Below, piece after piece: positions 1 through 20,000 of a DNA stretch of 20,000 nucleotides. The DNA is from an uncultured virus (IMG/VR IMGVR_UViG_3300037067_013691) (taxonomy: Duplodnaviria; Heunggongvirae; Uroviricota; Caudoviricetes). A program made the position numbers and the translations under genes. The notes beneath the pieces are model-generated. The model made no database searches, was not told the DNA's origin, and saw only the letters and a program-made list of their open reading frames with translations. Position 1 is the stretch's first letter. Every line of letters starts with the position of its first letter. Location: IMG/VR virus record IMGVR_UViG_3300037067_013691; one strand, 5' to 3'.

Positions 1-3000
1 TATTCAATTACTCCTGCAACACCATAATCATTAAATATTTTCTTTGTATTATCACTATACTTATCATATTGGTCTTTTGTTATAGTAAATATATTCCCAT
101 CCACATCACGACCTGCATATAACTTATCTTCTACATCCCCAATAATTTTAGCACTATCATTAAACCATTCTTGCCATTCCTTAAACTCACTTGGAGTTTT
201 AGGTTTTTCAATAATTGGATTAAATTGTGTTACATTCTCACTTACTACTGGCTCTGAAATCTTAGGTTTTATTTCAGTTACAACCGATGGAGCAACACCT
301 ACATTCCAATCATTCTTCAGGACATATTTAATACCATCCCTTAAATCTTGTGCCATATTTCCACAATAAGGGCCTGAACACATCATTTGTGTTACTTCTT
401 TTGTTTTAGGGTCAATAGTATAATTCCCTGTTTTCCATCCTTCCCCTGCCTGTTGATACCATAATCCTACAACTTCACCATTTGCACCTTTTATCATAGC
501 ATACTTCATTAATACTGGAGTTTTACCTTTTCCAGAACCAACATCAGGAGAAGTCATTGCTTCAAAATATGCTATATTCTGCCCTCTCAATTCATCAGGG
601 CCTCCCACGTCTTCTGACTTACCTACCTTCGTTGAACTTTCTACTACTATTTGACTCTGTGACTTAGGTACAAATAAATCTGTAGTTATACCAGCAGTTC
701 TTAATGGTTTTAAATCTTCTAGACTAATTAATACTTCTGATTCCCCTATCCTTTTCAACCCTTCAGCATTAGGAATTTCTTTCTTCAATAAGTATTCTTC
801 TGCAACCTTTCCACCTATTTCTAATTCGGGATGTAAAGCTTTTCCTTCTGGAGTGAATTGAGAAATAAATCCTTCCATATATATAGAAGGATTATCAGCC
901 ATATCTTGCCTTAATTCTTCCGTAAATTTATCAAGTCTATAGCCATTATTTGTAGCTAAAGATTTATTGTAAATCTCTATAATTCGTTTATCTTTTTCTG
1001 TCCTATCTTTCTCCCTTGGGGATAAAGCTAGTTTCAACAACCTATTTGCTTCTACACTATTTAAAGAAACCACCACTGGAACTTCCGTTGGTTGTATGCC
1101 ACTCGCAATATTTACAAATTCATTTGTTTTATATTCTTCTATCTGCCTACGTAAATCATCCCCTTGCATCCGATTTGCCACATCAAGTATAAAATCATCT
1201 TCCTTCGTATTTATACCCTTTAACTTATTCTCTTTAGCCGTCTTTACCATATTATTTGCTTTTTCAATAGTAACATAAGTAATCGTAGGCATTCTGGTAT
1301 CTTCATCCTTAACCATTATTGCCCTAGCAAGATACTGATTAAAATCAGTCCCCGATCTCAATGAAGGATATGCCCTATTAAATTCTGCCCAAGTCATTAC
1401 CTTATTTGTGGTTGTATCTAATACATTTAATAACGTACTATCTGTAGGATTACGAAAAACAAATGCCCACCCATCATCTTTCATAATTTGCATGGAAATG
1501 CCAGGAGCAGTCACCTTAGCATATTCTCCCATTGGAACACTAAATACTTGTCCCTTTAATTTAACAGATGTGCCATCTTTAAATGTTATGGGATTCTCGC
1601 TCCTCGTAAATCCCGTAACACGATTAATACCTGATAAGAGTGTTTGTTTAGCTACAAATTCACCATATCGATCATATATTTCTAACGCAACTTTTAAATT
1701 ATTCTCATGTTCAGCAGGGTTATCTTTTGCCAAGAATACATTTATATCATTCGCAAATTGATCTCTTGCTTCTTTAATAACAGAATCACCATACTTATAC
1801 TTACGATAACTAGCTAAATCACTTATTTTATTTTTCTCTTTAACTTCAGAATTTAACTGTTTGAACTCGCTAAGATCAGTTTTATCTTTTTTAGCAACAT
1901 CTTCAGCCAATAGTACAGATACTTTATCGGGAGCAATCACAGACGCAGTTGAAATATCACCCTTCTTGTATACAGCCGCAGCTAATGATTCTCCACTTAA
2001 TTTATTATTACCTGATTCTTTTCTTACTTCATTAACTATCTTTACTCCTTCTGGTGTTAATCCACTTGTTCCACCTGCCACACTAGCAGCTATTTGAGCT
2101 ATAGGACTCAACGATGCCAATCCAACAGCACCTTTGGATGTTTCTTTACCTATAAATCCTGACTGTCCACCTCCAGGTCTTGACGAACCCTCATAACCTA
2201 CTAATACACCCCCTAAACGGGCTTCTTCACCATTGGCATTTTTTTCTATTGATACACCCTTGATACTCTCTTTACTCTCTTTACTCTCTTTACTCTCTTT
2301 ACTCTCTTTACTCTCTTTACTCCCACCCCCACTATAACCTTTACCACCACCACTATCACCACGGGAAATTGCTATCTCCCCCATTATAATCTTTTGTGAT
2401 TTCGACCAATCTTCTTTCTCTTCAGGTGTCATACGTTTAAATACATAATCAGATGCAGCCGTTAATGCTCGATTAATAGCGAACGCATCACCCATTCCTG
2501 CTGCTGACCCTGTAAATCCTTGCCCCAAATTACCCGCACCGGATTGTTGATAATAATAGAGTGGAGGATTCTCTTTATCTGTACCATCACCAAGTTTACG
2601 TGTTACTATTCTAGATAATAAATTCCTGTAATTAGACTTATAATTTTTAAACCATTCCCTATCTACTGCGGATACAGGCTGTATGGCAGCACCACCCCTA
2701 GTTACGCCCCTCGCTTTTTCCTTGCTCTCATTAATCTGTTTTATCTTTTCATTTAGCTTGTTATCATCTGACCACTCTTCATCTGATAAAGAAGCTATCG
2801 TACTGCTAGATAAACCAGAACGTAATTTATCATTTGCAACATCACCAAAATCTTTCTGAACTTTAGCATTATATTCTGCCATCAATTCAGCAAGTCTAGA
2901 TGTTCCAATCCCACCAATACCAAATGTAGCACCTTTTTCTGACTCCTTTTCCCTAAATAACGCATATTGATACGCTTTATATCTAGGTGAATCCTTGGCA

Positions 3001-3188
3001 GGAATCCCAATAGGGCTAATACTAACATACGTTTTTTTAACCTCAGCTTGTTTTGCAACAATTTGTGGAGTTTTATCGCCTATACGTGCCAATTGATCTG
3101 AAGTATATTTATTAGCATTACTTCCACGTGTAGCCTGATCTACTGTAAACTTTTGTGTACTTGTTGTTTTTAACTTATCTATTGCCAT
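1..3188 (-). CDS. Large hypothetical protein (>1060 aa, 3'-truncated by the window edge), possibly an internal virion protein
   Basis: ATG at 3188 lies just after the stop of the upstream gene (3190). It reads MAIDKLKTTSTQKFTVDQATRG... and stays open to position 1 (...DYGVAGVIE). It is missing from the ORF track because there is no stop in the window. Charged/Gly-rich; no family recognised. Confidence 0.85.
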   Translation of the reverse strand, partial: MAIDKLKTTSTQKFTVDQATRGSNANKYTSDQLARIGDKTPQIVAKQAEVKKTYVSISPIGIPAKDSPRYKAYQYALFREKESEKGATFGIGGIGTSRLAELMAEYNAKVQKDFGDVANDKLRSGLSSSTIASLSDEEWSDDNKLNEKIKQINESKEKARGVTRGGAAIQPVSAVDREWFKNYKSNYRNLLSRIVTRKLGDGTDKENPPLYYYQQSGAGNLGQGFTGSAAGMGDAFAINRALTAASDYVFKRMTPEEKEDWSKSQKIIMGEIAISRGDSGGGKGYSGGGSKESKESKESKESKESKESIKGVSIEKNANGEEARLGGVLVGYEGSSRPGGGQSGFIGKETSKGAVGLASLSPIAQIAASVAGGTSGLTPEGVKIVNEVRKESGNNKLSGESLAAAVYKKGDISTASVIAPDKVSVLLAEDVAKKDKTDLSEFKQLNSEVKEKNKISDLASYRKYKYGDSVIKEARDQFANDINVFLAKDNPAEHENNLKVALEIYDRYGEFVAKQTLLSGINRVTGFTRSENPITFKDGTSVKLKGQVFSVPMGEYAKVTAPGISMQIMKDDGWAFVFRNPTDSTLLNVLDTTTNKVMTWAEFNRAYPSLRSGTDFNQYLARAIMVKDEDTRMPTITYVTIEKANNMVKTAKENKLKGINTKEDDFILDVANRMQGDDLRRQIEEYKTNEFVNIASGIQPTEVPVVVSLNSVEANRLLKLALSPREKDRTEKDKRIIEIYNKSLATNNGYRLDKFTEELRQDMADNPSIYMEGFISQFTPEGKALHPELEIGGKVAEEYLLKKEIPNAEGLKRIGESEVLISLEDLKPLRTAGITTDLFVPKSQSQIVVESSTKVGKSEDVGGPDELRGQNIAYFEAMTSPDVGSGKGKTPVLMKYAMIKGANGEVVGLWYQQAGEGWKTGNYTIDPKTKEVTQMMCSGPYCGNMAQDLRDGIKYVLKNDWNVGVAPSVVTEIKPKISEPVVSENVTQFNPIIEKPKTPSEFKEWQEWFNDSAKIIGDVEDKLYAGRDVDGNIFTITKDQYDKYSDNTKKIFNDYGVAGVIE
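2265..2322. repeat. 9-bp tandem repeat (ACTCTCTTT)x6 encoding (Ser-Lys-Glu)6 in the large minus-strand ORF
   Basis: Six perfect units at 2265-2318 plus a partial ACTC; in frame as GGG-SKESKESKESKESKESKE-SIK. Confidence 0.95.
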
Positions 3189-3189
3189 T

Positions 3190-3498
3190 TTACATCCCTC
3201 CTCTACTATTGGATGTCCATCTAGAGATAACATACAACACTATAACTATTAAAAATATAGCCATCGATGGAACATATAATTGTGTAACTGCTTGTTCTAA
3301 TCCAGTCATAGGTATTCTGCCTGCCTGTTCTGCTGTCAATATCTTCCCCGTAGCATTCCACGTTGTCATATCTGAAGCATTAAACGTCTGGGCTAATGTT
3401 CCATTATCGGCAGTCCAATGTAAAGCAATACTTTGTGTAATAGGAACAATAATGAATATCCCTATCAAACACCAAAACACAAACATTACCTTGCCCAC
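3190..3498 (-). CDS. Small two-TM membrane protein (102 aa), putative minor virion membrane protein
   Basis: N- and C-terminal hydrophobic helices; the loop has NGT, NAS and NAT sequons; start overlaps the upstream stop. Confidence 0.8.
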   Translation of the reverse strand: MGKVMFVFWCLIGIFIIVPITQSIALHWTADNGTLAQTFNASDMTTWNATGKILTAEQAGRIPMTGLEQAVTQLYVPSMAIFLIVIVLYVISRWTSNSRGGM

Positions 3499-3932
3499 TA
3501 TGCACCTCTTATTAATCTAGCAATCATTAATCCAAATGAAATCAATACACCACACATAATAGGAACATAGAGTAATATCCAAACTAAATAATACTCATTA
3601 CGTATCATACATACATTATCTGTACTATTCCACTTGCCCCCTGCTGTAGCACATTGTGCCTCAGTCTTTGTACTATCTATATCATATAACCATGAATAAT
3701 CAGCCGTAACAGCTTTAATAAAATAGTCAAGTGCACTTTTAGGTGTCCCACCATAGCTTAGAACACCACCAACAGTAGGATCAGAAGCTTGCGAAGTCTG
3801 TATCTGACCCATTCCATTAATCATAGCAACCTGCTCTTCTGTATATAAGCTAACACCCTCTACTATATTACCAACTAATGTTAACACTAGAAATATAAAA
3901 ATACAGGAAATAAACCACTTTGGACTATCCAC
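3498..3932 (-). CDS. Membrane protein (144 aa) with N- and C-terminal TM segments and a Cys-containing loop
   Basis: ORF track. Hydrophobic ends, C-x3-GGKW-x6-C loop, tightly packed between its neighbours. Confidence 0.8.
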   Translation of the reverse strand: MDSPKWFISCIFIFLVLTLVGNIVEGVSLYTEEQVAMINGMGQIQTSQASDPTVGGVLSYGGTPKSALDYFIKAVTADYSWLYDIDSTKTEAQCATAGGKWNSTDNVCMIRNEYYLVWILLYVPIMCGVLISFGLMIARLIRGA

Positions 3933-3935
3933 TTT

Positions 3936-5708
3936 TTATCTCCTTTCTCCCACAAATATACCTGCCAACGCTATTACAACAAATGGAACTATATTCCACA
4001 ATGGAACTAACTTTAATACTGCCATTACTATTATTGTTCCAGCTACAACGACAATAGATAATAATAAATTATTATTACCAAAAGATGAATAGAATATAAT
4101 CCCTATTGATACACTAACCATCATTGCTAACATATACCAAAATGTTGATTTAGGTATCTCCCATTGATCGGCAGCAAAATTAACTATTGAATAAAAGGGC
4201 GTATTCTGCATATTGGTGTAATCAGGTGATTGAAACCACATATCTGATGTACTAGGATTATCAACAATATCTACCCCCTCTCCCGTAGAAGCTAATGTAG
4301 TCACCATTACCGTAGCATTAGATGTAGAATAAAATCCTGATGTTTCGCCCCATGCCATAATATAATAAGTAGTGCCTGCTGCTAAACCTGTTTTGGTAGT
4401 AGAACTCTGTACATCAAAATATACCAAAGCACCATCCGTTGTAGATGTAGGATACGAACCAGCTTTATATCTTATTAATGTTCGGCTTGAACCAACCCCT
4501 TTTGCCCATGATAAAGATACTGAATTAGCTTCAGGAATAACCACTAAATTTGTAGGTTCACTAACTCCAGTACTGGTAGTAAATGTTATTTCTGCACCTA
4601 ATTGAGTAGAAACATCATTTGTTATTTCTGCTCTAATATAATAAGTAGTACCTATTGCTAGTCCTGATATATCAACATATGGTAAATCACCTGTCTCATA
4701 ACCATCTACTGCCGTAGTATTAGATGTATAAACATTAGTTACTGTGCCCCGCAAAAAACGTACTTCACAAGATTGCCCACCATCATTACTTACTAACGCA
4801 TTTAATCTTGCTGTAGCTGAAGTAATTTGGGATACACTAGACGTAGTAATAGAAGGATCATTTAGCATTGTAAATGCTACCTCATCACCATACGCATATC
4901 CTAAATTATTATGTGCGTAAGAACGGTAGTAATATGTTGTTCCTTTTATTAATCCCGTCTTAATATAGGAATATATACCAATTGCACTAGCACCTTCTGT
5001 TGAATTAGCAGTATATGTAGATGGGGGAACTATATTATCAGGGTTCGTAGAATTTGACGTAGCCCCCCATACAAATCCTCTTAAATCAAGCGTTCCACCA
5101 TTAAGTCCTGTAACATCACCATTTAATGTCACACTATGTACTCCACCTGTATAAGAAATATTAGATGCAATATCCGTAGTAGTAGATGGTACAGTTGCAA
5201 TATAATCCACCACCACATAAGCATAAGTAACCCAATTATTAGAAACTGATGTCGCTTGAAATCCGAATTGTGCACTATCTACATCACTTTTTGTCCATGC
5301 CAAACCTGTACTTGGATTTGTTGCCCATGTATATGAATACAATACCCATAAAGTCGTTATAGACTGACTATGACTATCATCAATCCCTCCAATTCTAACC
5401 ATAGGTAAAATACCAACGCTACCACTTGGATTCTTTGCCTTAAAATAAAATGTCACTGAATTGATTGTTGCACTTGGAGTAGTATCTGCAAACTCCCATG
5501 TATGCGCTTTATTATACGTTAACTGAATATATGCAGTATCATCATCTGTGTTTATATTTGTATAATCAGCAGCCCCACCAACATATGTACCAAATATATA
5601 ATATCCCTCTCCTGTCGCTATTTGTGTAATTGTAGTAGCATATACAGGAGTAGGAACTAATCCCATAAGCATCACAACTAATAAACATACATATATTAAA
5701 TACTTCAT
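3936..5708 (-). CDS. Membrane-anchored surface/spike protein with FN3-like repeats (590 aa)
   Basis: Signal peptide (..PTPVYA), Thr/Ser-rich beta domains with GL.xGTTYY FN3 signatures, and about three C-terminal TM helices. Confidence 0.8.
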   Translation of the reverse strand: MKYLIYVCLLVVMLMGLVPTPVYATTITQIATGEGYYIFGTYVGGAADYTNINTDDDTAYIQLTYNKAHTWEFADTTPSATINSVTFYFKAKNPSGSVGILPMVRIGGIDDSHSQSITTLWVLYSYTWATNPSTGLAWTKSDVDSAQFGFQATSVSNNWVTYAYVVVDYIATVPSTTTDIASNISYTGGVHSVTLNGDVTGLNGGTLDLRGFVWGATSNSTNPDNIVPPSTYTANSTEGASAIGIYSYIKTGLIKGTTYYYRSYAHNNLGYAYGDEVAFTMLNDPSITTSSVSQITSATARLNALVSNDGGQSCEVRFLRGTVTNVYTSNTTAVDGYETGDLPYVDISGLAIGTTYYIRAEITNDVSTQLGAEITFTTSTGVSEPTNLVVIPEANSVSLSWAKGVGSSRTLIRYKAGSYPTSTTDGALVYFDVQSSTTKTGLAAGTTYYIMAWGETSGFYSTSNATVMVTTLASTGEGVDIVDNPSTSDMWFQSPDYTNMQNTPFYSIVNFAADQWEIPKSTFWYMLAMMVSVSIGIIFYSSFGNNNLLLSIVVVAGTIIVMAVLKLVPLWNIVPFVVIALAGIFVGERR

Positions 5709-5709
5709 A

Positions 5710-8700
5710 CTATGCGCCTGTCTTTAACCATACTTGCCATACAAATAATACCAACGCTACCGCTAACATAATTGCCATCATTGCTAACTCTGCCAAACCT
5801 GTACCCCACAAAATAATAATAATTGGCACAGGGATAACAATAGCTGCAATAGCATGACCAGCAGGAAAACATAGTAACGCTACTATGGCATATACAACAA
5901 ATCCTATTAACGTACCAACCGTACTACCCTCAATATTAAACGAGTTACCTACAGTAGAAAATATACGTGTAACTTGTGGGCCAAGCAATGTCCGCCATGC
6001 TAATTCTGATTGATACTCATGATTATAATCATCCTCATTTGGAGTAGGAGAACTGGATACAATTGTAAATAAATTAGGACGCACAACATCTAATTCTGGG
6101 ATACACGTTGAAAAGATAACACCACCACTAGAATTCAAACAAACACCACGCCCTGAGATATACTCAGTTAAATCAGTTGAATAATATGTCTCCATTAAAG
6201 AAGCAGAAGACCGCACCCACGAATCCAATCTAGTTAAATCTGAACCCTGCCAATCAGATGATACTAAAGCATACTCGGCATAAGTATTCGGTGAAAAATT
6301 AGCATAAATCCTTACCCTATAAGATGAACCCCAATCTAATGCAGTTACAGAGTCAGCAGCAAGATATATTGAACCTGGTCTATATCCCCACTCAAAACAC
6401 TTAGTTTGTGCTATAACTGTTGTACCATTAACCAATTGTAAATAAAATAATGTTGACACATCTTTAGCTTGGTCATAGTAAGGAGGATAAAAGTTCTTAT
6501 ATAATAATGTAATTAGCCAATCCCCTGTCTCAATGTATCCAGAAAAAACTTTAGCATCATCTACTGACAAGCATGGATTGCCCCATACTTCAAATAAATA
6601 ATCTACAGTCCATAATGATACCCACGATACACCATCTGTAACAGAATATCCCCCTGCTCCACCACCATATCCACCACCACTATCAGCTTGCCACATTACA
6701 TAATTTGAAGAATCACCTGCAACTGCACGTATCACAACAGCATATGTAGTATTAGCTGTAAGGCATTTCTCTGTATCCATTGTAAATGTATACCACGTGT
6801 AAGATGTTGAGAAAGAATTACCATCTAATTCACAATAAACTAAATCAGCACCCGTAGGATATGGGTCTGTACTATATGCAGTAGTTTGCGTACTCCAAAT
6901 ATATCCAGTTGCGTTATGCGAATAAGACCTATAATAATAGGTTTGATATGCACTAGTAGGAGCATCATAAGTCCAACTACCAGCCGAATAAGACCCACTA
7001 ACAGTATAATTAGTAGAATATGATGCTGGTGGATTTTCCTTTACTGGTAAAGTAGCATTAGAAGTATGTCCCCAAGCAAATCCTCTAGCATCCATAGTTG
7101 TAATATATGAGCCTGAAAATGTTGTTGTAGTTGGTGTTACTGTATTACGAATAGATACCCTGACAGTTCCAGGACTTCCCACCTTTTTAAGCATTACTTT
7201 TACAGTAGTAATAGAATGTGGAATATCAGTTGTATTAGTAGTAAATGTTTGATAAGTTAAATTAGCTGAGTTAATTTTGTTAGAATCACCATCACCACCA
7301 ATATTCCAATATTCATAAGGAACAGGAGAACCTTTTGTTGCAAATAACTTATCATCACCATAGTACCATGTTGATCCAAGTAGCATCTTAGCACGATAAT
7401 GATAAACAGTAGCCGCATTTAACCCCGTAACAGACCTACTAAATACACCTGAACTATATGTTCCTGATTCTACACTAGAATAACCATAAGAAGAATTTAA
7501 ACCATAATCAAACCCTACTTGTGAAACTGTAAGTGTAGATGATACTACTAACAAACCATTTAATATTGCCGTAGTCTGTGTAAATCCTGTTACTCCTTTG
7601 GTAGTAACTGAATTTTCATATGGGGTAGAAATACAACCAGTATATGTATCAGAATACTGTGAAAGTACACCATCATAACACCATGTCCATGCTCTAAAAT
7701 AATACGCTGTACCATTTATCAATCCCATTTGGACATAATTTGTTCCAGTAGAATTGTATGATAGAGTGCCATCCGTAACATCCGCAGGATATCCACCTGT
7801 TTTATATCTAATTACAGTATGAACAACTGTACCTGTACCCGCAACTGCATTTGTCCATGTTAAATCTATAGCAGAATTATTTGATGTACAGGTGAATCCA
7901 GTTGGCTCTGTAGGCTTGGTTAAAAATGTTTCCTCGCCACCCCATCCATATCCTGTAACATTATATGAATATGCTCTTTCATAATACCTATCACCAGATG
8001 TTAATCCTGTCTTATTATAAGAAAATGCTCCTGTTGAGAAAACTCCCACTTCTGTATAATTTGACGTATAAGAGGCTGGAGGAACTTCATTTACTGGTAA
8101 CGTACTATTAGATGTTGTCCCCCATGCAAATCCTCTCATTGTAGGATTTAATGCATCAATTATTTGTCCATTCATTGTAGAAGTGGTTTCTTCCACTAAT
8201 GTAGTTGTATTAGTTGTAGTGATAGGAACAGGAGAGGGAAGAGTATACTCAATATGTAATTTAGCACATTTAGTAGTTGACCCATCATAAGTATAAACAT
8301 CCCTGTAAGTATTATTAACAGCAGTAGAACTTCCTGCATGGTCGTCCCAAAATAAAACCATAGCATTCCCACTCACCCATCCTCCCCGTGACACTATCTC
8401 TTGAATTATTGTCTTAATTTCAGGTGAATTATATGCCGTATTTGCAGTCCAAGCAGGAATCCCATTCCATGTCACAGATGCAGTAGTAATATAGTTATTA
8501 TTCGCACCCGCAACAATTGTTCCTCTCCTCGCCTGATAATTAGCTAATGTAGAAAATACAGCAGCATTATCTTCATCATCACCAATAATTACTGAGTTTA
8601 CTACTGTATTTGATAATGATGTGACTGCCGTATAGGTTAAATACGATGTAGTAATAGTTCCTGTATTTGGGATAGTAACATTGAGAAAACGATATCCACC

Positions 8701-12458: not shown

Positions 12459-12480
12459 CTATTAAGAATATAGAAAATGG

Positions 12481-13269
12481 CTATAGGCTACGCCAGTTAA
12501 CTGACCCCACTATATCCCAAATTCTTGCATCAACAGAAGAGTTCAATTGTATACATACCAAGAGGTCTATTGTTGAATTGGCAGATATCTGAATTTCACC
12601 ACTTCCTGCACCATTCAGGTGAGTAGGGATTAAGACAACACTACTGGTAGTTCCTGTGGCAGAGAAATCAGAATCTATATAGTTACCTGCATTTCCCCCA
12701 ATTGTTAGAGCTAAACTTGATCCATCCAATGCAGTACTTAATGGTGACTGTCCAGTATGCAAATTAACATTTATAATTGGCCTTACATATACCCAAGTAC
12801 TAGTAGTATTCTGAACTTTCATAGTGAAGCATACTTGCGAACTTCCCAATACTTGTACATTACTTGGGTTAGTTAACCATGTTACGCCACCACTTTCTGA
12901 CGGTGTAATTCCACCACCACTAGTATTCCAAGGTTTTTCATTCTTCAATGCCGTTATAGCATTATTTACTGCTGTGGAAATAGCAGTATCAACTTCTACT
13001 CTCTTATAATATCCTGATAAATCTGGAGCAGTTCCCTGATTTATCTTAGAAATACGGTCATTGATATCATTTATTGCTGATTTTGATGCCTTACCTTCAT
13101 CTAATGAAGTAATTGAAGATTTTATTTTAGATATCTCAGAGTCCTGCTCTGTATCCTTGGCTGAAACCGTTGCTACCGCAGGTTTAGTGGGTAAACAACC
13201 TAACCCCACTACCCCAATAATCAAAATTGCACACAGAATTAAAATAGACTTTCTCAAAAGTACCTCCAC
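12481..13269 (-). CDS. Putative lipoprotein with a coiled coil and a C-terminal beta domain (start probably TTG at 13257)
   Basis: RK + hydrophobic stretch + GLGC lipobox-like motif; GGAGG precedes the TTG; fibre-like DLSGYYKRVEVD motif. Confidence 0.7.
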   Translation of the reverse strand: MEVLLRKSILILCAILIIGVVGLGCLPTKPAVATVSAKDTEQDSEISKIKSSITSLDEGKASKSAINDINDRISKINQGTAPDLSGYYKRVEVDTAISTAVNNAITALKNEKPWNTSGGGITPSESGGVTWLTNPSNVQVLGSSQVCFTMKVQNTTSTWVYVRPIINVNLHTGQSPLSTALDGSSLALTIGGNAGNYIDSDFSATGTTSSVVLIPTHLNGAGSGEIQISANSTIDLLVCIQLNSSVDARIWDIVGSVNWRSL

Positions 13270-13302
13270 TCAAAATAGTATATTATATTCTGAACTATAT
13301 AT

Positions 13303-13332
13303 ATCATATATTATATTAAACATCTGTGTCAA
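13303..13332 (-). promoter_or_regulatory. Leftward promoter of the divergent region
   Basis: TTGACA-18 bp-TATGAT on the minus strand. Confidence 0.45.
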
Positions 13333-13361
13333 AATTTATAATATATTATTCACAATACCTA

Positions 13362-13390
13362 TTGACAACCACTGTATAATGTGTTATATT
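13362..13390 (+). promoter_or_regulatory. Rightward early promoter with operator
   Basis: TTGACA-17 bp-(TGt)TATATT; TATAA-TGTG-TTATA palindrome at 13375-13388; downstream SD TAAGGAG. Confidence 0.75.
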
Positions 13391-13417
13391 CTTATATACA
13401 TTAAATAAGGAGTTCTA

Positions 13418-14056
13418 GTGGATAATCTTCAATCAGCCCAACAAGCAATAGAAGCAATACAGGAAAGGAATTCTGACCTTGTAAAGTATTTTCAGAATAC
13501 ACAGATAACTTCGGTGCAAGAGCAGAAGGCAACCGAAGAGAACCTTGCATCAGCACTTTTCACTTATAAAAAACTTAAAGATACCCAAGATGGGCTATTG
13601 AATCCATTACATGAAACAGAAAAGGGTATTAAAGCTCTCTTTAAGCCTGTACTAGACCAGTATACTAATGCTATAAATAAATGGAGAGATGGTTTAAAAG
13701 ATTGGAGAGCTTCCCAAAAGCAATTAACTGAAGCAAATATTGTACAACAAGCACAGGATTATTGGAATAAGAGAAAGGAAGCTGAAAAAACTGGCGAGGT
13801 AGTTCCTTTACCAGACCTTGGAACTTCAATTATCGCTAAAACATCCTATCATAATATGGGTAGTACATCTTATCGTAAACACATAAAGGTAAGTATCATA
13901 TTCCCTAATTTAGTTCCAAGAAAATATTGTGTACCATCTGAATCACTTCTAAGAAAGGAAACAGAACTTGCGCTAGAGCAAGGGAATCCAATTCCTCTAA
14001 TTGAAGGGGCTATAATAGAAATTGAAGAAATACCAGTAAATATAAAGGCAAAATAA
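13418..14056 (+). CDS. Coiled-coil phage protein with a Gp157-like C-terminus
   Basis: Long helical N-terminus; C-terminal VPRKYCVPSE..IEGA resembles the vP.ey...IPG motif of Gp157-like phage proteins. Confidence 0.6.
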   Translation: MDNLQSAQQAIEAIQERNSDLVKYFQNTQITSVQEQKATEENLASALFTYKKLKDTQDGLLNPLHETEKGIKALFKPVLDQYTNAINKWRDGLKDWRASQKQLTEANIVQQAQDYWNKRKEAEKTGEVVPLPDLGTSIIAKTSYHNMGSTSYRKHIKVSIIFPNLVPRKYCVPSESLLRKETELALEQGNPIPLIEGAIIEIEEIPVNIKAK

Positions 14057-14075
14057 ATAAAAGTGAGGTAAAGAT

Positions 14076-14252
14076 ATGAAACTAATAATTGAACCTACAC
14101 CAGCGGATGCAATTGTCTATAAAGTACCAAACAAAGAAATTACATTAGACCCTTCTAAAATATGGGTACTTAATATCGGTAAAGATGGTAAATGGCATGT
14201 CTACACTATGACTGATATATCCTTTGATTCTTATGAGAAGGTAACAATATGA
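14076..14252 (+). CDS. Hypothetical protein (58 aa)
   Basis: GAGGT SD; MKLIIEPTP...EKVTI; ATGA overlap with the next ORF. Confidence 0.7.
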   Translation: MKLIIEPTPADAIVYKVPNKEITLDPSKIWVLNIGKDGKWHVYTMTDISFDSYEKVTI

Positions 14253-14377
14253 AAGGATTAGAAGAAAAAATAGAACATACCAGAGTGCAACTTTGCCATG
14301 CTGAATTTAAGGTCTACCAATTACAAGTTAAATTACAAAACTTGGTAGATGGATTTCAGGAGGAAAAATCTAAATGA
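14249..14377 (+). CDS. Hypothetical coiled-coil peptide (42 aa)
   Basis: ATGA overlaps at both ends; MKGLEEKIEH...EEKSK. Confidence 0.65.
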   Translation: MKGLEEKIEHTRVQLCHAEFKVYQLQVKLQNLVDGFQEEKSK

Positions 14378-14571
14378 GTTCACAAACAATTATGCCGAAT
14401 ACAATAATTCACTGTAAGAATGTATCTTGCCAATTAACTTTTACTATCATTGCATATTCATTTAATGATAGGCAATGTACTGTAATTGACCAATGCAAGA
14501 CTATTGATTTTACGGGAAAAACTCAACTGTTTTGCCCTTGTTGCGGTATGGAGATCAAATCTAATGAGTGA
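14374..14571 (+). CDS. Small zinc-finger protein (65 aa)
   Basis: CKNVSC...CPCCG; GGAGG SD. Confidence 0.7.
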   Translation: MSSQTIMPNTIIHCKNVSCQLTFTIIAYSFNDRQCTVIDQCKTIDFTGKTQLFCPCCGMEIKSNE

Positions 14572-14818
14572 GATATTAGAGGAACAAGATAGGTTAGCGT
14601 ATCCTGTACACGAACATCCACATGGAGTCGAAAATACATCCCCAAGCGAGTATAGAGCATGGATATGTGTAGATTGTATGCACGTTTTCAGCGATACTGA
14701 AATTAGAGATGATATATCCAAAGGTTGGGGACACTCATGTAAATCACATCCATGTAGAAAAGGTCAGCGGTGTGAAAGCCATCTTGAACCATATATACCA
14801 AGCATAAGGAGTATCTAA
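14564..14818 (+). CDS. Cys/His-rich hypothetical protein (84 aa, true start MSEIL)
   Basis: GGAG SD before the ATG at 14564; CVDC, HSC and RCESH motifs. Confidence 0.7.
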   Translation: MSEILEEQDRLAYPVHEHPHGVENTSPSEYRAWICVDCMHVFSDTEIRDDISKGWGHSCKSHPCRKGQRCESHLEPYIPSIRSI

Positions 14819-15438
14819 TGAGTGAGATATTAAGTGCAGAGGAAACGTTGTTGCAACCAGATTACATATTAGGTTTATTATCAACAATCATTGATGGGAA
14901 ACACAAAACATTTGGTGATATATTCGATAAACTTAGTAAAGCAATGTTACAAGCCAATTTGTCCCAAGCTAAAGAAACCCATTACAAAGTTTCTCAATAC
15001 TACGAATCCGTAGTTATCCCTGCCCGAATAGCCGAGGCAACAGGACGTACGCCTGACGATACAAAAGATAGTGATGAATTTTGGGAGCCAATCATATACA
15101 AGGATGGCAAGATTGATGAAGAACAAGTCCTAAAAGAATTAGCAGACTTCTATTTTATGATGGAACAAGTACCAAAAGTTTATGACACTATCACTAATGG
15201 ATTATTATCAAAGCCACTCTATAAAGCCGAGGTGGTCATAGGTAAAGCACAGGATTGTGCCCAATATGATATTGAGGAAGCCATAGCCGAGGAAAAGAAG
15301 CGAATATTTGCAGAGATAGAGAAATTTCATATTGCTAGTTGCCAACTTACAGTCCATCGGTATGAGTGCAAGGATTGTCCATCATCAGATTTTATATGTA
15401 ACTGGCAACAACTCAAGAAGCAGGAAGGTGTGGCATGA
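14818..15438 (+). CDS. Hypothetical phage protein (206 aa)
   Basis: ORF track. TAAGGAG SD; TAATG overlap. Confidence 0.75.
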   Translation: MSEILSAEETLLQPDYILGLLSTIIDGKHKTFGDIFDKLSKAMLQANLSQAKETHYKVSQYYESVVIPARIAEATGRTPDDTKDSDEFWEPIIYKDGKIDEEQVLKELADFYFMMEQVPKVYDTITNGLLSKPLYKAEVVIGKAQDCAQYDIEEAIAEEKKRIFAEIEKFHIASCQLTVHRYECKDCPSSDFICNWQQLKKQEGVA

Positions 15439-15617
15439 ATAATCAAAAACTAGCATGGTACATTCTTGATGAGATAGCAGTTATGTGTAGCAGTAAACAT
15501 ATTGGCAGAGATTGCCCTATATGTGACCGAGCAGTTGAAGCCATGAAATTACTTGAAAAACCAACTCCTGATGAATGTAATAGGTTTTATAAAGAGCGTA
15601 TCTTACTAGGAGAGTGA
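15435..15617 (+). CDS. Hypothetical protein (60 aa, CPIC motif)
   Basis: Overlap-coupled at both ends. Confidence 0.65.
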   Translation: MNNQKLAWYILDEIAVMCSSKHIGRDCPICDRAVEAMKLLEKPTPDECNRFYKERILLGE

Positions 15618-15829
15618 AGATGGAGATAAATAACCCGTTTGATGAAAACAGTGTTACTAACTACGCTTTCAATGAAGGTTACCAAGCTAAAGAAGAAGCT
15701 ATGATTAAGTGGCTGTTTGAGAAGTGTGATGAGCATGCTTCTCAAGTACGAAATGGGAAGCTGTACTTTTCCAATAAACACCATCAATGTTTTATCTGCA
15801 TGAATAATCTAAAGGAAGGAAAGATATGA
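15614..15829 (+). CDS. Hypothetical protein (about 70 aa, C..H..C..C)
   Basis: Overlap-coupled; AGGAG SD. Confidence 0.65.
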   Translation: MKMEINNPFDENSVTNYAFNEGYQAKEEAMIKWLFEKCDEHASQVRNGKLYFSNKHHQCFICMNNLKEGKI

Positions 15830-16026
15830 GTATGTGTCCGTTAATGTTATTGGCAGCAACTATATGGAATAGTGGAGAACACGAAGTCTCTATGTCCAGT
15901 GATTATGTTGGTGAAAAATGTGCTTGGAGCGAGCGAGGTACTAAAAAGGATGGATGGTTAGATATAATTTGCAGTATAAGTCATCAAGTTGTAGGGCAAA
16001 AGGACGAGAGGTATTACCGTGAATAA
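15826..16026 (+). CDS. Hypothetical protein (66 aa, CPL..CAW motif)
   Basis: ATGA overlap; Cys motif common in small phage ORFs. Confidence 0.6.
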   Translation: MSMCPLMLLAATIWNSGEHEVSMSSDYVGEKCAWSERGTKKDGWLDIICSISHQVVGQKDERYYRE

Positions 16027-16312
16027 AGTTAGAATAGTAAAGAGTGGAGCAGAACCAGTCATTATTGAAAAACCAGGTAAACATATTCGCAAGTTTAATA
16101 TCGAAAATACCTTATCCATCCAATCTCCCTTCACCACTGAGGAACTGGCTGTAATGGCTGGATGGAGTAATAAAAAATGGAATGAGGTCTTTGGTTTATA
16201 TTTAGTCAACGAGTTTCATGGGGCTGGTTTCAACTTAGCCGATACGTTACTGGTTACGGGTAAACCATTCTTTGACTATCTCCATGAACAGATTAAGAAG
16301 GAGGTGAAATGA
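16019..16312 (+). CDS. Hypothetical protein (97 aa)
   Basis: GAGGT SD; overlap-coupled. Confidence 0.65.
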   Translation: MNKVRIVKSGAEPVIIEKPGKHIRKFNIENTLSIQSPFTTEELAVMAGWSNKKWNEVFGLYLVNEFHGAGFNLADTLLVTGKPFFDYLHEQIKKEVK

Positions 16313-16527
16313 GTAATACAATAACAGGAAGTAAAGCAACTAAACTTTTAGGAATTTCCCACCAAGCTTTTGCTTCATTAATTAAACGTAATCGTTTAAA
16401 GGCACAGAAAATAGATAGACACTATACATTAACACACAATGACCTAGAAAACTACATAAAATTGCGCTTATCAGAACTGAAAAAGGAGACTGATGAACTC
16501 GCAGACATCTTAAACTATCTTCAATAG
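16309..16527 (+). CDS. Excisionase/MerR-like (HTH_17-type) DNA-binding protein
   Basis: IT..KATKLLGIS...ASLIKRNRLKAQKI...Y.L...DLENYI; GGAGGTG SD. Confidence 0.75.
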   Translation: MSNTITGSKATKLLGISHQAFASLIKRNRLKAQKIDRHYTLTHNDLENYIKLRLSELKKETDELADILNYLQ

Positions 16528-16530
16528 GTA

Positions 16531-16568
16531 TTGACAACCACTTACTTTAGCAGTATAATATGTTATAC
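16531..16568 (+). promoter_or_regulatory. Consensus sigma70 promoter with operator
   Basis: TTGACA-17 bp-TATAAT (perfect consensus); GTATAA-TATG-TTATAC palindrome at 16553-16568. Confidence 0.85.
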
Positions 16569-16587
16569 ATTGAATAAGGAGTTAAAA

Positions 16588-16752
16588 ATGGAAACAACAC
16601 TTAAAGGGAACACTCTTACGGTAGAGATGGAACTATCCAAAGGAGAACGTAGCAAATCTGGGAAAAGCCTTATAGTATTCTCTACTAATGGATTTAAAAA
16701 GGTCGATAACTCAGAATATCAAATAAGCATCAATGTTATAAAGAGCAAATAA
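16588..16752 (+). CDS. Small beta-rich phage protein (54 aa, SKSGKSLIVFSTNG motif)
   Basis: TAAGGAG SD before the ATG at 16588; the TTG start in the ORF track is actually the -35 box. Confidence 0.75.
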   Translation: METTLKGNTLTVEMELSKGERSKSGKSLIVFSTNGFKKVDNSEYQISINVIKSK

Positions 16753-16753
16753 T

Positions 16754-16927
16754 ATGAAAGAATCACTTCAACTTTTGAAAGATTACGAACAGGAAATCAA
16801 GGAAACTTCCCTCTGGATTTATAGTATGCCCTATTCTAAATTGAATCCAGCATCACAAAGAGCCATAAGACAAGCTTGCAAGGAAACCATGTACTCTAAA
16901 ATATATGATATGACGGAGAATAAATAA
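16754..16927 (+). CDS. Hypothetical protein (57 aa)
   Basis: MKESLQLLKD...MTENK; fills the gap between neighbours. Confidence 0.65.
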   Translation: MKESLQLLKDYEQEIKETSLWIYSMPYSKLNPASQRAIRQACKETMYSKIYDMTENK

Positions 16928-17122
16928 ATGTTTACAAAAATATTAACAAGGGATATGGTTGGGCAGAAGATACGCATCTATGTAACTAACAGGAAACGTT
17001 ATACTGGAATACTAAGGGACTACGGAGATAACTTTATTCAAGTTAGCCCACTCCAAATGAAAATCGGTCAATCTATTTGGTTCAATCCTGAACAAATAAT
17101 TTCTCTTTCAATAGGTGAGTAG
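16928..17122 (+). CDS. Sm/Hfq-like fold protein (64 aa)
   Basis: GQKIRIYVTN..RYTGILRDYGDNFIQV...IWFNPEQIISL matches the Sm1/Sm2 pattern. Confidence 0.6.
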   Translation: MFTKILTRDMVGQKIRIYVTNRKRYTGILRDYGDNFIQVSPLQMKIGQSIWFNPEQIISLSIGE

Positions 17123-17124
17123 GC

Positions 17125-17515
17125 ATGACAGAAATAATTACAGTTGTTGATAGGGTTGAAGAAAAAGAAGCCAACAAATATAAGCTCATAACCAAAACTG
17201 GTGATGAATATACCATAGGTAAAATGCTTAATAATAGACTTAATGAGTTTCAATCAGGAATAGCACTTAAACTCACAATGGACTCTTATAATAACTTCCC
17301 CTATATAAAAGATTTTGTACGCTGTATTGATATAACACCTGAGAAATTAGCGCAAATCTCCAAGCCTATCAAGAATACTAAAGACATCTCCATAGAGGCT
17401 CAGGTAGCAGTAAAAGCTATTACGGACTTAATGGCTCATGGAATACAAGTATCTCAGGACTTAGAAGAGATGACTATGGAGNNNNNNNNNNGCATTAAAG
17501 GGGGCAATAGAGTGA
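17125..17515 (+). CDS. Hypothetical protein, possibly ssDNA-binding (spans the assembly gap)
   Basis: Beta-rich N-terminus plus a SIEAQVAVKA helix; probable end ..ALKGAIE* (TGA 17513-17515) after the N-run. Confidence 0.5.
17482..17491. other. Assembly gap (10 N)
   Basis: Ns in the sequence; true length unknown. Confidence 1.
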
Positions 17516-17736
17516 TTGACAGTAATGATATAAAACTTTTCTATGCTATCCCGAATAATCCAGTAGAATCACAAAAGGTTGTAATTATAGTTTCCGATGA
17601 TAAACGAATTATAAGTGGCAAGATTGCAACATTCGTATCTGTTGATTCAAAGATACAAAGTATTACCCTTGAACAACCTAATGGTAAACATATCACTTTC
17701 AATAATGAACATATTATCTCTATAGAGGAAGCATAA
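17512..17736 (+). CDS. Second Sm-like fold protein (74 aa)
   Basis: GGGGG SD and GTG start; QKVVIIV...ISGKI...ITLEQPNGKHITFNNEHIISIE. Confidence 0.5.
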   Translation: MIDSNDIKLFYAIPNNPVESQKVVIIVSDDKRIISGKIATFVSVDSKIQSITLEQPNGKHITFNNEHIISIEEA

Positions 17737-17919
17737 ATGAACTGCCCCAAATGTAACAACTCTCTCCAAGCTACCTTTACAGGCATAGAACATGCTTGGA
17801 CAAATCCAGTAACAGAGAAGTCCAATGATGGCTCAGTTATGTTCTACTATGTATGTATCAACCCTAAATGTGAGGATGGGAAAATGAATTGCCCTACTAG
17901 CGAGCCATTTCCGTTTTAG
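17737..17919 (+). CDS. Zinc-ribbon protein (60 aa)
   Basis: CPKC...CINPKC; GAGGA SD. Confidence 0.7.
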   Translation: MNCPKCNNSLQATFTGIEHAWTNPVTEKSNDGSVMFYYVCINPKCEDGKMNCPTSEPFPF

Positions 17920-17954
17920 CGACAAATCCAATTTAGATAAGGTATAATAATTTT

Positions 17955-18446
17955 ATGGCATTAAGTAAACGTCAGAAAATAACTCTAAGGAATGCAGGAT
18001 TCCTACCTAGGGAGATATATCAACTATCAACAGCCCGTGGCGGGGACTCAACGAGTGGACATACTGTACCAATGCAAATTGCATGGAGTAGCAAACCAGT
18101 ACAAGCAATGATTAGGTCTCGTAGGAAATGGATATCTAATCTAAAAAATGTTGGGTGGAATGATGCTGAAATAAAAGCAAAAATTAGTCAATACTATTCT
18201 ACTGGACGCTTTACAAATATTTTTAGTTTTATTAAATTGGAATATATTGCGTCAAAGAAATTGTCAGATTGGGCAACTGCTACTAAATTACGTGTAAGAG
18301 CTAAAGCCTCAAGAGTTTTAGGCCGAAGCTATGGAAGGAAAATGAGACCTACCCTCCTTCCCAAATATCTCCCCAAACGCCCCATGCTTCCCACCAAGCC
18401 CAAACTAATCCGCAAGCGTAGTTATAAGCTTGGCACAAAGGAATAG
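17955..18446 (+). CDS. Highly basic protein (163 aa), candidate terminal or DNA-binding protein
   Basis: Arg/Lys-rich; lies upstream of the PolB gene; TATAAT at 17943-17948 ends 6 nt before the ATG, suggesting a leaderless mRNA. Confidence 0.7.
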   Translation: MALSKRQKITLRNAGFLPREIYQLSTARGGDSTSGHTVPMQIAWSSKPVQAMIRSRRKWISNLKNVGWNDAEIKAKISQYYSTGRFTNIFSFIKLEYIASKKLSDWATATKLRVRAKASRVLGRSYGRKMRPTLLPKYLPKRPMLPTKPKLIRKRSYKLGTKE

Positions 18447-18454
18447 GAGGATAT

Positions 18455-18598
18455 ATGATAGAGACATTTGGAGTAGTAACCCCGCCATTTTCTACTAGAG
18501 AACTATCACTAATAATAACCATAGTAATTTTAGTGCTTAGCAACTTCCTGACTGTATGGTTAGTATCAAAACACAATAATAAACCATGCTCCAAATAA
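18455..18598 (+). CDS. Single-TM peptide (47 aa)
   Basis: AGGAGG SD; MIETFG...LIITIVILVLSNFLTVWLV..; overlaps the PolB start. Confidence 0.7.
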   Translation: MIETFGVVTPPFSTRELSLIITIVILVLSNFLTVWLVSKHNNKPCSK

Positions 18599-19776
18599 TC
18601 GGATATCACATAGACCGTGATTCACGCACTATTTTCACAAGCAATGGGGAAAAGTGTTCCAAATCACCCTACATAGACTTCCTGCTTAAAGAGCAAGATG
18701 CCATTAGAGTGTGTTATCAGCTTGATTTTTTCATTGCTAATCTGTTGAAATTTATCGGTCTATCTGACAAGCAACTCATTCAACTCCATGACACCTCAGA
18801 ATTATCCACCAATGGTTACAAGTTTAAGTTCGTACCCAAGAAATTCTTCTCCATTATCAAGGATGAGAAGTTCGTGGTATTATCTGATGCTTCTCAGTAC
18901 ATGGAAAGATATGACTTACTTGGAGACCCCTTAGAAAAGGCTAAGGAAGCCCAAAAAGTAGGGGTACAGGTTTATAACGCATTAAGTAGGTTGGGATTAC
19001 ACCCAAAGTCTTTGATTTCTCCAATAGCAACCTTTGAGAAAGAAGTCCTTTTTAAGATGGACTTACCTACCATAGATGATATGCCAGAAGAAGCTGCACA
19101 ATATGCCTATGAGTGTTGCACAGGGCCAATAATATGCTCATACCAGAAAGGAAAATTTGAGAAGTGTTGGGACTATGATTTGGTCTCAGCCTACGCATCG
19201 AAGCTTTCAGAATGTATAGACTATAGGTACGGTTCATGGGAAAAGATAGACCATTTTGACCCAACTGCTCATTATGGATTCTACTTATCAAATGTTGATA
19301 TGACAGCGAATTTCCATCCCATTGTATATGCCAGACATAATGAAGAATCACATTGCCCTTTGGGTGAATGGCAACGTAAATCTACACAAGATGAACTTAA
19401 CTTTATAACTAATTACAAACGTGGAACTTGGGAAGTAGAGGATGGATGGGTATTTCACCCTACCAAGATAGTAAAGCCCTATAAGAAAGTGATAGATTGG
19501 TTACATTCCCAAAAGGAAAAATCAACTGGAATGCAACGTAAGATAGTAAAACGCATTCAAGAAGGCTTGTGGGGTTATACACTTAGGATTGACTGGAATG
19601 GAGAAACAGCAACACCGTCCGAACATATGAATACAGTATTTGGATGCCAAACAGAGACTCCAGTTAAGTTGGAAGTTGCAAAATTTGTTATAGACAACCA
19701 ATTAGAAGAATTCTTATTATCAATTGCAGTGGACGGAGTATTAGCTACCAAAGAAGTAAATCTACCTAAGTCTTAG
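18586..19776 (+). CDS. polB: Short, degenerate family B DNA polymerase (protein-primed type)
   Basis: Motif A DYDLVSAYA; long TPR1-like insert; motif B KRIQEGLWG; motif C SIAVDG. Confidence 0.75.
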   Translation: MLQIIGYHIDRDSRTIFTSNGEKCSKSPYIDFLLKEQDAIRVCYQLDFFIANLLKFIGLSDKQLIQLHDTSELSTNGYKFKFVPKKFFSIIKDEKFVVLSDASQYMERYDLLGDPLEKAKEAQKVGVQVYNALSRLGLHPKSLISPIATFEKEVLFKMDLPTIDDMPEEAAQYAYECCTGPIICSYQKGKFEKCWDYDLVSAYASKLSECIDYRYGSWEKIDHFDPTAHYGFYLSNVDMTANFHPIVYARHNEESHCPLGEWQRKSTQDELNFITNYKRGTWEVEDGWVFHPTKIVKPYKKVIDWLHSQKEKSTGMQRKIVKRIQEGLWGYTLRIDWNGETATPSEHMNTVFGCQTETPVKLEVAKFVIDNQLEEFLLSIAVDGVLATKEVNLPKS

Positions 19777-19960
19777 GTACAAACCTATCAAGCACTAATT
19801 TGCTTATAACCCCCATTGTAGTCATAAACATAAACAATGCTACACCTTTTATCACTGAATCAGAGATACCATTGGAAAGTAATTGCACTCCTGAATATGA
19901 TACCATCCCGTTCCCTGCCATTATCCCACTTGTTTTAACGTGTGTAAGAATATTTTTCAT
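19766..19960 (-). CDS. Small membrane protein (64 aa)
   Basis: Hydrophobic helices; converges on and overlaps the polB stop. Confidence 0.55.
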   Translation of the reverse strand: MKNILTHVKTSGIMAGNGMVSYSGVQLLSNGISDSVIKGVALFMFMTTMGVISKLVLDRFVPKT

Positions 19961-20000
19961 AAGTAGATATTATATCTAACAACATCTACTTATGCAACCA

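Follow-up and report, generated by a model that had tools for sequence, protein, structure and literature searches.

The stretch of DNA analysed here, called the window throughout, comprises 20,000 nucleotides of an uncultured virus recorded in IMG/VR as IMGVR_UViG_3300037067_013691. Its genes lie in two divergent arms, one on the minus strand (3-13269) and one on the plus strand (13418-19776), which meet at 13270-13417; the GC content is 0.32-0.39 across the window. According to a hydropathy scan, the products of the minus arm are secreted and membrane proteins along with tiny basic peptides, and a giant open reading frame (ORF) starts within it. The plus arm is an early or replication arm of ≈ 20 small genes (13418-18446) followed by a polymerase gene. 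A first-pass annotation, made from the letters alone, had described a structural arm of membrane proteins, tiny basic peptides and one huge ORF and had read it as an enveloped or secreted bacterial virus with a pleolipovirus-like architecture. Each item of that description is present in the sequence and the observation itself is confirmed; the interpretation is partly supported, and we argue below that the window may belong to a new lineage of membrane-based bacterial viruses.

Relatives of the element are encoded at 17 metagenome loci and at one locus of a metagenome-assembled genome (MAG), G001 (Clostridiales bacterium UBA4821), with conserved gene order. DNA of the lineage occurs in groundwater and landfill metagenomes from four studies, and the window may have come from two of these samples. 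The window's polymerase gene is also found on a contig of 73,633 bp, and relatives reside on contigs of up to 103,625 bp. Among the metagenome contigs, six related ones measure 33-104 kb. In G001, three contigs were joined through exact overlaps of 26 and 150 nt into a composite of 63.4 kb (the reverse complement of C127, then C131, then the reverse complement of C162), which repeats the gene order of the window's membrane arm. No extension of the composite past C127 and C162 was found by end overlaps, nor was an end-truncated partner found for the missing half of a methyltransferase gene that is cut by the start of C162. Within the class of G001, the polymerase family was present in G001 alone among 399 scored genomes (401 drawn). 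Locus L013 is 100% identical to the window over ≈ 9800-16500 and diverges beyond, and to the right of ≈ 16,500 read coverage falls about five-fold in runs X1 and X2. The window's right end is therefore a minor variant, a recombinant or an assembly switch.

In the membrane arm, two short genes beside the giant ORF encode proteins of 102 aa (3190-3498, minus strand) and 144 aa (3498-3932, minus strand), each with a transmembrane segment at its N- and C-terminus in the hydropathy scan. They agree with the small two-transmembrane proteins of the first-pass annotation. The 102-aa protein carries three N-x-S/T sequons, and its 104-aa homologue in C131 has the same three; a 145-aa homologue of the 144-aa protein is encoded at the corresponding place in C131. 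Next come two large ectodomain proteins of 590 aa (3936-5708, minus strand) and 1297 aa (5710-9603, minus strand), both with a signal-like N-terminus and a hydrophobic C-terminus (residues 521-588 and 1224-1297, respectively); they are candidate spikes or adhesins. The hydrophobic C-termini probably form two to three helices each rather than one anchor. Both had been described as C-terminally anchored spikes with fibronectin type III (fn3) domains. The hydrophobic C-termini stand, and fn3 was found in the C131 homologues of the two proteins (E 7.6e-6 and 9.1e-5), but none of the window's own proteins matched fn3 in Pfam at E<=0.01, so that support for the fn3 label is indirect. Residues 40-152 of the 590-aa protein match phrog_6368 (E 6.8e-11), and its C131 homologue matches fn3 and Pur_ac_phosph_N. 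Homologues of the 1297-aa protein carry DUF2341 (E 1.5e-22 in C131) together with fn3; its nearest Atlas cluster scores 0.93, and fn3 is present in 29% of the members of that cluster.

At the other end of the minus arm lies a gene for a 262-aa protein (12481-13269, minus strand) in which an N-terminal hydrophobic segment is followed by a nearly invariant cysteine within a relaxed lipobox (GLGC, LAGC or SVSC). The call of a lipoprotein with a lipobox was thus borne out. An AF2 model built from 13 sequences was confident over residues 140-262 only (pLDDT 75-88), and this region folds as a beta-sandwich. Structure prediction, which had been proposed as a check on the structural proteins, gave this region fold matches of middling strength: the best were CBM3-like modules and the C-terminal domain of Pgp3 (Z 7.4-7.7). 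We read the protein as a helical stalk that is tethered by a lipid and topped by a binding-type head, not as a capsid protein; the model is not decisive on this point.

The first-pass annotation had overlooked two group I introns in an apparent 235-aa ORF at 10207-10914. That ORF is spurious, because Rfam matches a group I intron inside it (RF00028, minus strand 10464-10659; 78.8 bits, gathering score 50); what occupies the region is a 72-codon gene interrupted by two group I introns in tandem. On the minus strand, exon 1 (10901-10914, 14 nt) is followed by intron 1 (10667-10900, 234 nt), a micro-exon 2 of 18 nt (10649-10666, placed by comparison with the intron-less C131 gene), intron 2 (10405-10648, 244 nt), which is the one matched by Rfam, and exon 3 (10218-10404, 187 nt). 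Rfam gave no detection of intron 1. It is a diverged paralogue of intron 2: 142 of the 247 aligned columns are identical, and matching helices are kept through paired changes. In both introns a U precedes the 5' cut and G is the last base. Locus L004 has one intron only, at the site of intron 2 (67.2 bits), the site of intron 1 is empty in L004 and C131, and the gene is uninterrupted in C131 and L009. DNA contigs of runs X1 and X6, which come from different studies, lack exactly 10405-10648 (joint 10403->10649); intron 2 is therefore a present-or-absent insertion. From these boundaries, it appears that the 72-codon gene can be expressed only after both introns, which are presumably self-splicing, have been removed.

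The spliced product would be a protein with two hydrophobic helices and a loop of ≈ 24 residues. The gene is protein-coding, because the exon differences from L004 and C131 are mostly synonymous. We considered an RNA gene and rejected it, given the synonymous third-position changes at 97% protein identity and the absence of an Rfam match for the intron-less copy. The 72-codon protein family has 32 members that are 75-97% identical, compared with 26-70% in the polymerase family, and the gene appears to be the most conserved one of the lineage within the sampled regions. The twin introns likewise mark it as the most constrained gene in the genome. Both loop cysteines are invariant, the loop is disulphide-capable, and an N-x-S/T sequon is retained even where the loop sequence differs. 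Upstream lies a 16-codon basic leader ORF (10911-10961, minus strand) behind the ribosome site AAAGGAGG; the stop codon of the leader and the start codon of the 72-codon gene share the sequence ATGA, and a similar leader is present in L004. The overlap and the strong ribosome site suggest translational coupling of the leader and the 72-codon gene. Just after the gene, a hairpin at 10160-10200 (minus strand) is a candidate terminator or stabiliser; it is not followed by a U-run, and its pairing is held by compensatory changes across the window, L004 and C131.

Around the 72-codon gene, the minus strand encodes five basic peptides (27, 28, 35, 49 and 70 aa; 27-44% lysine plus arginine). The 70-aa protein (9582-9794; 27%) is conserved in L004 (61%) and L018 (38%) and is followed by those of 49 aa (9798-9947; 31%), 35 aa (9949-10056; recognisable in L004 and C131) and 28 aa (10053-10139); the 27-aa peptide (11134-11217) is the most basic, at 44%.

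The giant ORF (3-3233, minus strand) runs off the window after its N-terminal 1077 aa, which contain no transmembrane segment in the hydropathy scan and match no family in Pfam, PHROGs or NCBIfam. Its homologue in C131 is 3514 aa long (L021:1601-12145), and the sole recognisable domain of that protein is a LigT 2H-phosphoesterase domain at residues 2595-2720. This domain carries two H-x-T motifs and could act on RNA ends or cyclic nucleotides. Within the window part, a 9-nt tandem repeat of six copies (2255-2326, minus strand) encodes an (SKE)n linker; on one contig of run X3 the allele is 27 nt shorter.

Left of the giant ORF, the G001 composite has a plus-strand block with a primase-like C-terminus and YopX, and a run of small basic and transmembrane proteins that includes a 270-aa P-loop ATPase (on C127) and continues with more small transmembrane proteins. 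The 174-aa and 200-aa proteins adjoining the ATPase carry transmembrane segments. Five very basic proteins of 83-106 aa are encoded in a run upstream of the ATPase (C131 152-3817; L019:3566-3817 and neighbours), one of them with a match to DUF5771; counted with the basic peptides of the window, candidate DNA-binding mini-proteins are unusually numerous. A search of 1.84 billion representatives gave 52 homologues of the ATPase. The ATPase gives no Pfam match itself and hits a Zot-like PHROG weakly (E 0.3); in its family, 6 of 41 aligned sequences (the query and 40 homologues) match Pfam Zot (PF05707). The AF2 model (pLDDT 89.5) has no visible transmembrane segment. Its best match in the PDB is the Zot N-domain 2r2a (E 5.8e-7; TM-scores 0.45/0.60), with the STIV packaging ATPase B204 also listed, and in BFVD Zot proteins of Inoviridae occupy ranks 2, 4, 8 and 11. 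ATPases of the Zot-like type are used by extruded filamentous phages, and this one can be described as Zot/FtsK-HerA-like. The gene is known from the relative G001; the window's own genome was read over 1-20000. The first-pass annotation had advised inspecting flanking DNA for ATPase, terminase and capsid genes: the ATPase was found in this relative, and neither a terminase nor a capsid family was found in its 63.4 kb.

The polymerase gene of the plus arm (18586-19776, plus strand) encodes a distant PolB-like protein of 396 aa, of a short form that ends right after motif C. We found 45 homologues. The window protein gave no Pfam match at E<=0.01, and a profile of the family found no polymerase in the PDB; 6 of 19 aligned family members match PF03175 (DNA_pol_B_2; best E 5.9e-9), and the C131 orthologue matches phrog_11768 (DNA polymerase). 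Palm motifs of such enzymes usually read DxxSLYP (A), KxxxNSxYG (B) and DTD (C). In our alignment an A-like D..SAYP and a B-like KR...G.WG are conserved, and motif C is VDG, with a single Asp. Short forms (≈ 390 aa) end just past motif C; the long ones, of 515-556 aa, add ≈ 140 residues. The ORFs flanking the window polymerase do not resemble this extension. As candidates for a lost thumb we rejected both the downstream ORF, which is a phosphoesterase, and the conserved basic 163-aa protein encoded directly upstream (17955-18446, plus strand), as neither shows similarity. On these alignments the earlier label "pPolB-like" seems fair. Relatives carry DnaB, DnaC-like, SSB and primase-like replication genes of the large-phage type. 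In some relatives the polymerase, DnaB and DegT genes contain Hint/intein inserts (L014:10001-12226, L009:4634-6331, L009:17957-19903); with many HNH endonuclease genes, these inteins amount to an unusually heavy load of selfish elements. The plus arm of the window further contains a helix-turn-helix/excisionase-like gene (16309-16527, plus strand) and a run of N at 17482-17491.

Beyond the polymerase, relatives encode a glycosylation block. An STT3/AglB oligosaccharyltransferase was present in each of the six loci with sequence beyond the polymerase (L013, L008, L009, L014, L011 and L004) and in C162 of G001, with STT3 and AglB core domains above the cut-off and WWDYG retained in all seven transferases. 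In the six loci the converging block comprises the transferase, two DUF2206 membrane proteins, a methyltransferase, a DegT-type sugar aminotransferase and transketolase-like genes. C162 further has GT2 and GT4 glycosyltransferases, UDP-glucose dehydrogenase, an epimerase/dehydratase, DnaB, SSB and VRR-NUC. The Atlas model of the transferase aligns to AglB-like proteins (TM-score 0.89), and its nearest cellular cluster is bacterial, mostly Chloroflexota. By comparison with L013 and L004, we infer that the window's own genome contains such a block. Sequons exceed expectation in the 1297-aa protein (24 observed, 14.8±3.2 expected, z 2.9) and in the 102-aa protein (3 observed, 0.7 expected, z 3.2). 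The plus-arm proteins (13418-19776), which are of cytoplasmic type, seem depleted when taken together, with 4 sequons and ≈ 12.5 expected from shuffles. Judged by these sequences, the ectodomains of the lineage probably carry an N-glycan made with enzymes that it encodes itself. In a full-text literature search, the titles and opening lines of abstracts mentioned no prokaryotic virus with its own STT3/AglB and sugar pathway, nor the lineage itself.

The intergenic interval at 13270-13417 is a divergent promoter region with sigma-70-type matches in both directions, from which the two arms would be transcribed. The rightward promoter (13362-13390, plus strand) reads TTGACA-N17-TGTTATATT and the leftward one (13332-13303, minus strand) TTGACA-N18-TATGAT; a second consensus promoter with a 12/12 match lies within the plus arm (16531-16559, plus strand). 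The three best sigma-70 matches (12/12, 11/12 and 11/12) are all intergenic and correctly oriented, in agreement with the TTGACA/TATAAT promoters noted in the first pass. We rejected promoter counts as statistical evidence: the total was 78 against a shuffle mean of 88.7, and three high-scoring sites were found where 1.6 were expected, a number reached in 21% of simulations. Since the counts are not above chance, the case for the promoters rests on placement and conservation. The rightward promoter is conserved as TTGACA-N17-TGnTATAYT in the window, L004, C131 and L009, while the spacer sequence varies. Shine-Dalgarno sites precede most plus-arm genes. In the minus arm, at 11331-12389 (minus strand), a free-standing homing-endonuclease-like protein of 352 aa has three DUF4379 zinc fingers (E 1.2e-47) and a nuclease-like C-terminus, and matches HNH and homing-endonuclease families of PHROGs. 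The gene is present in the window, L013 and L009 and missing from L004 and C131. A tie between this endonuclease and the introns was rejected, as L009 has the endonuclease yet an intron-less 72-codon gene.

These features indicate that the host is bacterial and not archaeal, as had been proposed. The conserved extended -10 promoter argues against an archaeal host, and the group I introns together with bacterial-type SSB, DnaB, DnaC-like, YopX and Gp157/Gam-like genes point to bacteria as well. Of the bins that hold relatives, one is Clostridiales (G001), and a fragment of the 262-aa family bears a Patescibacteria label. Because binning of mobile DNA is unreliable, neither label fixes the host phylum. 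The earlier guess of Chloroflexota is unproven; the sole lead is the label of the transferase's nearest cellular cluster.

Families diagnostic of a conventional virion were absent wherever we searched. Capsid, terminase, portal, tail and lysin families were not found among the 27 window proteins with Pfam and PHROGs (13 proteins with NCBIfam), among the 34 + 33 + 8 ORFs of the 63.4-kb composite, or in six further loci (88 ORFs with Pfam and 55 with PHROGs, in overlapping sets). In Pfam, 4 of the 27 window proteins matched at E<=0.01, DUF4379 alone above its cut-off; PHROGs matched 4 of 27, and NCBIfam gave one irrelevant weak match among 13. The earlier statement that no head-tail, jelly-roll or lysin genes are recognisable thus holds for the window and for the composite of the relative. 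Database placement was equally negative: INPHARED gave no match by DNA or by four proteins, PLSDB none with the polymerase, and queries with the polymerase, its alignment or the giant ORF retrieved no contig of the lineage from IMG/VR, where the window's start had no match either. Placement in a known family, which the first-pass annotation had named as refuting its reading, was not obtained in these searches. Partition, relaxase and conjugation families were not seen in the 63.4 kb of the relative.

The only recognisable morphogenetic genes are the membrane proteins and, in the relative, the Zot-like ATPase, a gene content that fits a new lineage of large bacterial virus-like elements. We propose that the window makes up the middle 20 kb of an uncultivated virus-like element with a bacterial host and a double-stranded DNA (dsDNA) genome of at least 73.6 kb, which would represent a new membrane-based virus lineage and may glycosylate its own envelope proteins. 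We assign this a probability of about 0.4. A particle would be assembled at the cell membrane from virus-encoded membrane proteins, and the element's own transferase would add N-glycans to their ectodomains. The basic peptides would condense the DNA and the ATPase would move it; release would take place through budding or extrusion, not lysis. The particle may be either enveloped or secreted. A more detailed version is doubtful: that there are large (60-100 kb) capsid-less dsDNA viruses of bacteria with a membrane body or an extruded filament, an AglB-type N-glycosylation and a custom glycan pathway of their own, assembly by a Zot-like ATPase, condensation by basic peptides and the 72-codon two-helix glycoprotein as major structural protein. 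Such a class, so far unrecognised, would extend inovirus or pleolipovirus logic to a large bacterial virus and would equip a prokaryotic virus with N-glycosylation machinery.

Several points weigh against this proposal. No particle, capsid or envelope has been observed, and the whole virion model is inferred from genes. The ATPase, the transferase and the length of 3514 aa all come from relatives whose polymerases are 48-63% identical to that of the window. The TM-scores of the ATPase are modest (0.45/0.60), with generic RecA-like folds scoring nearly as high, and no fold match of the 262-aa head rises above the middling range (Z<8). Sequons are not in excess in the 590-aa protein (5 observed, 7.9 expected). 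The few labelled members of the Atlas clusters nearest the 1297-aa protein and the transferase are Viruses/Uroviricota. Searches with hidden Markov models (HMMs) may miss diverged jelly-roll or HK97 proteins, and the unseen portion of related genomes, from ≈ 10 kb (73.6 versus 63.4) to 40 kb (by the 103.6-kb contig), might include a head module. Because the flanks of the window and these 10-40 kb are unseen, a head module or a diverged jelly-roll capsid must still be reckoned with.

Such a module would make the element a tailed phage (Caudoviricetes) with its head and tail genes in the unseen part; the membrane arm would then serve host-surface, receptor-binding or superinfection-exclusion functions, and the giant protein would be an injected polyvalent protein. 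Genome sizes of 61-104 kb, a giant ORF of ≈ 3500 aa and Atlas neighbours labelled Uroviricota all suit a tailed phage, for which YopX, Gp157/Gam-like genes, homing endonucleases and inteins are typical, and the 10-40 kb of unseen DNA offer room for the missing genes. We nevertheless consider it unlikely, since the 63.4 kb of the relative contain no head, tail, terminase or lysin family, the sole morphogenesis-type ATPase found is Zot-like and not a terminase, and the IMG/VR queries named above retrieved no contig of the lineage even though six related contigs of 33-104 kb occur among metagenome contigs. A further alternative is an icosahedral virus that encloses a membrane, in the manner of PRD1 or the sphaerolipoviruses; its jelly-roll capsid protein would have diverged beyond what HMMs detect or would be encoded in the unseen DNA. 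In its favour are the pPolB-kind polymerase, the small FtsK-HerA/Zot-like ATPase, which bears a likeness to the packaging ATPases of STIV (B204) and PH1 as well, the many small membrane proteins encoded beside this ATPase and the beta-sandwich head of the 262-aa protein. Yet that head matches carbohydrate-binding modules best and not capsid proteins, no jelly-roll capsid family or fold was found, the 174-aa and 200-aa neighbours of the ATPase carry transmembrane segments, and the genome is several times larger than those of the known families of this kind. We hold this explanation to be improbable.

The lack of any capsid or packaging hallmark could instead mean that the element is not a virus, and that a large plasmid-like element remodels the surface of its host with its own glycoproteins and glycosylation pathway. 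The surface glycoprotein-like genes with a full glycan pathway, the binning of relatives with bacterial MAGs and the lack of a contig of the lineage among the IMG/VR matches would agree with this. What favours a virus is the richness in inteins, group I introns and homing endonucleases, a density that, like the Gam and YopX genes, is more in keeping with lytic or chronic phages. Moreover, the 63.4 kb yielded no family for partition, relaxase or conjugation functions, PLSDB gave no match to the polymerase, and a Zot-like ATPase is of a virion-assembly type, which leaves a plasmid-like element distinctly improbable. Still harder to uphold is an archaeal pleomorphic or spindle-shaped virus. By name, the AglB_core-like and DUF2206 families are mainly archaeal, and a small two-helix hydrophobic major protein together with pPolB is typical of spindle-shaped archaeal viruses. 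Against this stand the TTGACA-N17-TGnTATAYT promoter conserved at four loci (the window, L004, C131 and L009), the presence of group I introns, the bacterial-type SSB, DnaB, DnaC-like, YopX and Gp157 genes, the bacterial cellular cluster nearest the transferase (Chloroflexota; TM-score 0.89) and the fact that both bins holding relatives are bacterial. We regard an archaeal virus as very improbable.

To our knowledge, capsid-less membrane-based viruses of bacteria are limited to one small family of Mollicutes phages and are otherwise archaeal; a bacterial lineage of 60-100 kb built on membrane logic would widen the range of known virion architectures and would explain how such contigs escape virus-detection pipelines. 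If the transferase acts on the element's own envelope proteins, a phage glycan shield or a glycan-based host range becomes directly testable. Independently of the virion, twin group I introns separated by 18 nt in a 72-codon gene constitute an unusually compact natural splicing system.

With N4-like and crAss-like phages the lineage shares a size of 70-100 kb, a two-arm layout and a single giant ORF (≈ 3500 aa here). Unlike theirs, its giant ORF contains no RNA polymerase family and has a LigT domain only, and no head or tail genes were found. The Tectiviridae and other PRD1-like viruses have in common with it a pPolB-kind polymerase gene that a conserved, small basic gene directly precedes, a small packaging-type ATPase and numerous small membrane proteins; in contrast to them, no double jelly-roll gene was detected here, and the genome is about five times larger than that of a tectivirus. 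Pleolipoviridae, such as His2, which has a pPolB, have genomes of 7-17 kb and archaeal (haloarchaeal) hosts. The likeness noted in the first-pass annotation is evident in the virion-type genes, which encode membrane proteins both spike-like with C-terminal anchors and small, in the pPolB-kind polymerase, in the small NTPase of the relative and in the lack of a detected capsid gene. As kinship it is not supported: no pleolipovirus family was matched, and the 73.6-kb contig shows that the element is not pleolipovirus-sized. The lineage also differs in its bacterial host, giant ORF, DnaB/SSB kit and own oligosaccharyltransferase. For the core genes of Pleolipoviridae (spike, membrane protein and NTPase), the 27 window proteins gave no PHROG or Pfam match, within the limited sensitivity of HMMs.

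Inoviridae and Plectroviridae have single-stranded DNA genomes of 5-15 kb that replicate by rolling circle, a pI/Zot ATPase, small hydrophobic coat proteins and a C-terminally anchored adsorption protein. Homology to inovirus coat proteins was not found in the lineage, which further differs by its 60-100 kb of dsDNA with a PolB-like polymerase and by a 270-aa ATPase without a visible transmembrane segment. It resembles these phages in the Zot-like ATPase of the relative, encoded within a run of small membrane proteins, in a tiny, highly conserved hydrophobic protein, in large C-terminally anchored ectodomain proteins and in the absence of a detected lysin. The only bacterial precedent that we know of for an enveloped, capsid-less and non-lytic dsDNA virus is the Plasmaviridae, represented by Acholeplasma phage L2. 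Phage L2 has a genome of ≈ 12 kb and infects wall-less Mollicutes. Genome size separates it from the lineage described here, and INPHARED gave no sequence similarity; what the two share in gene content is a set of membrane proteins with a small basic protein.

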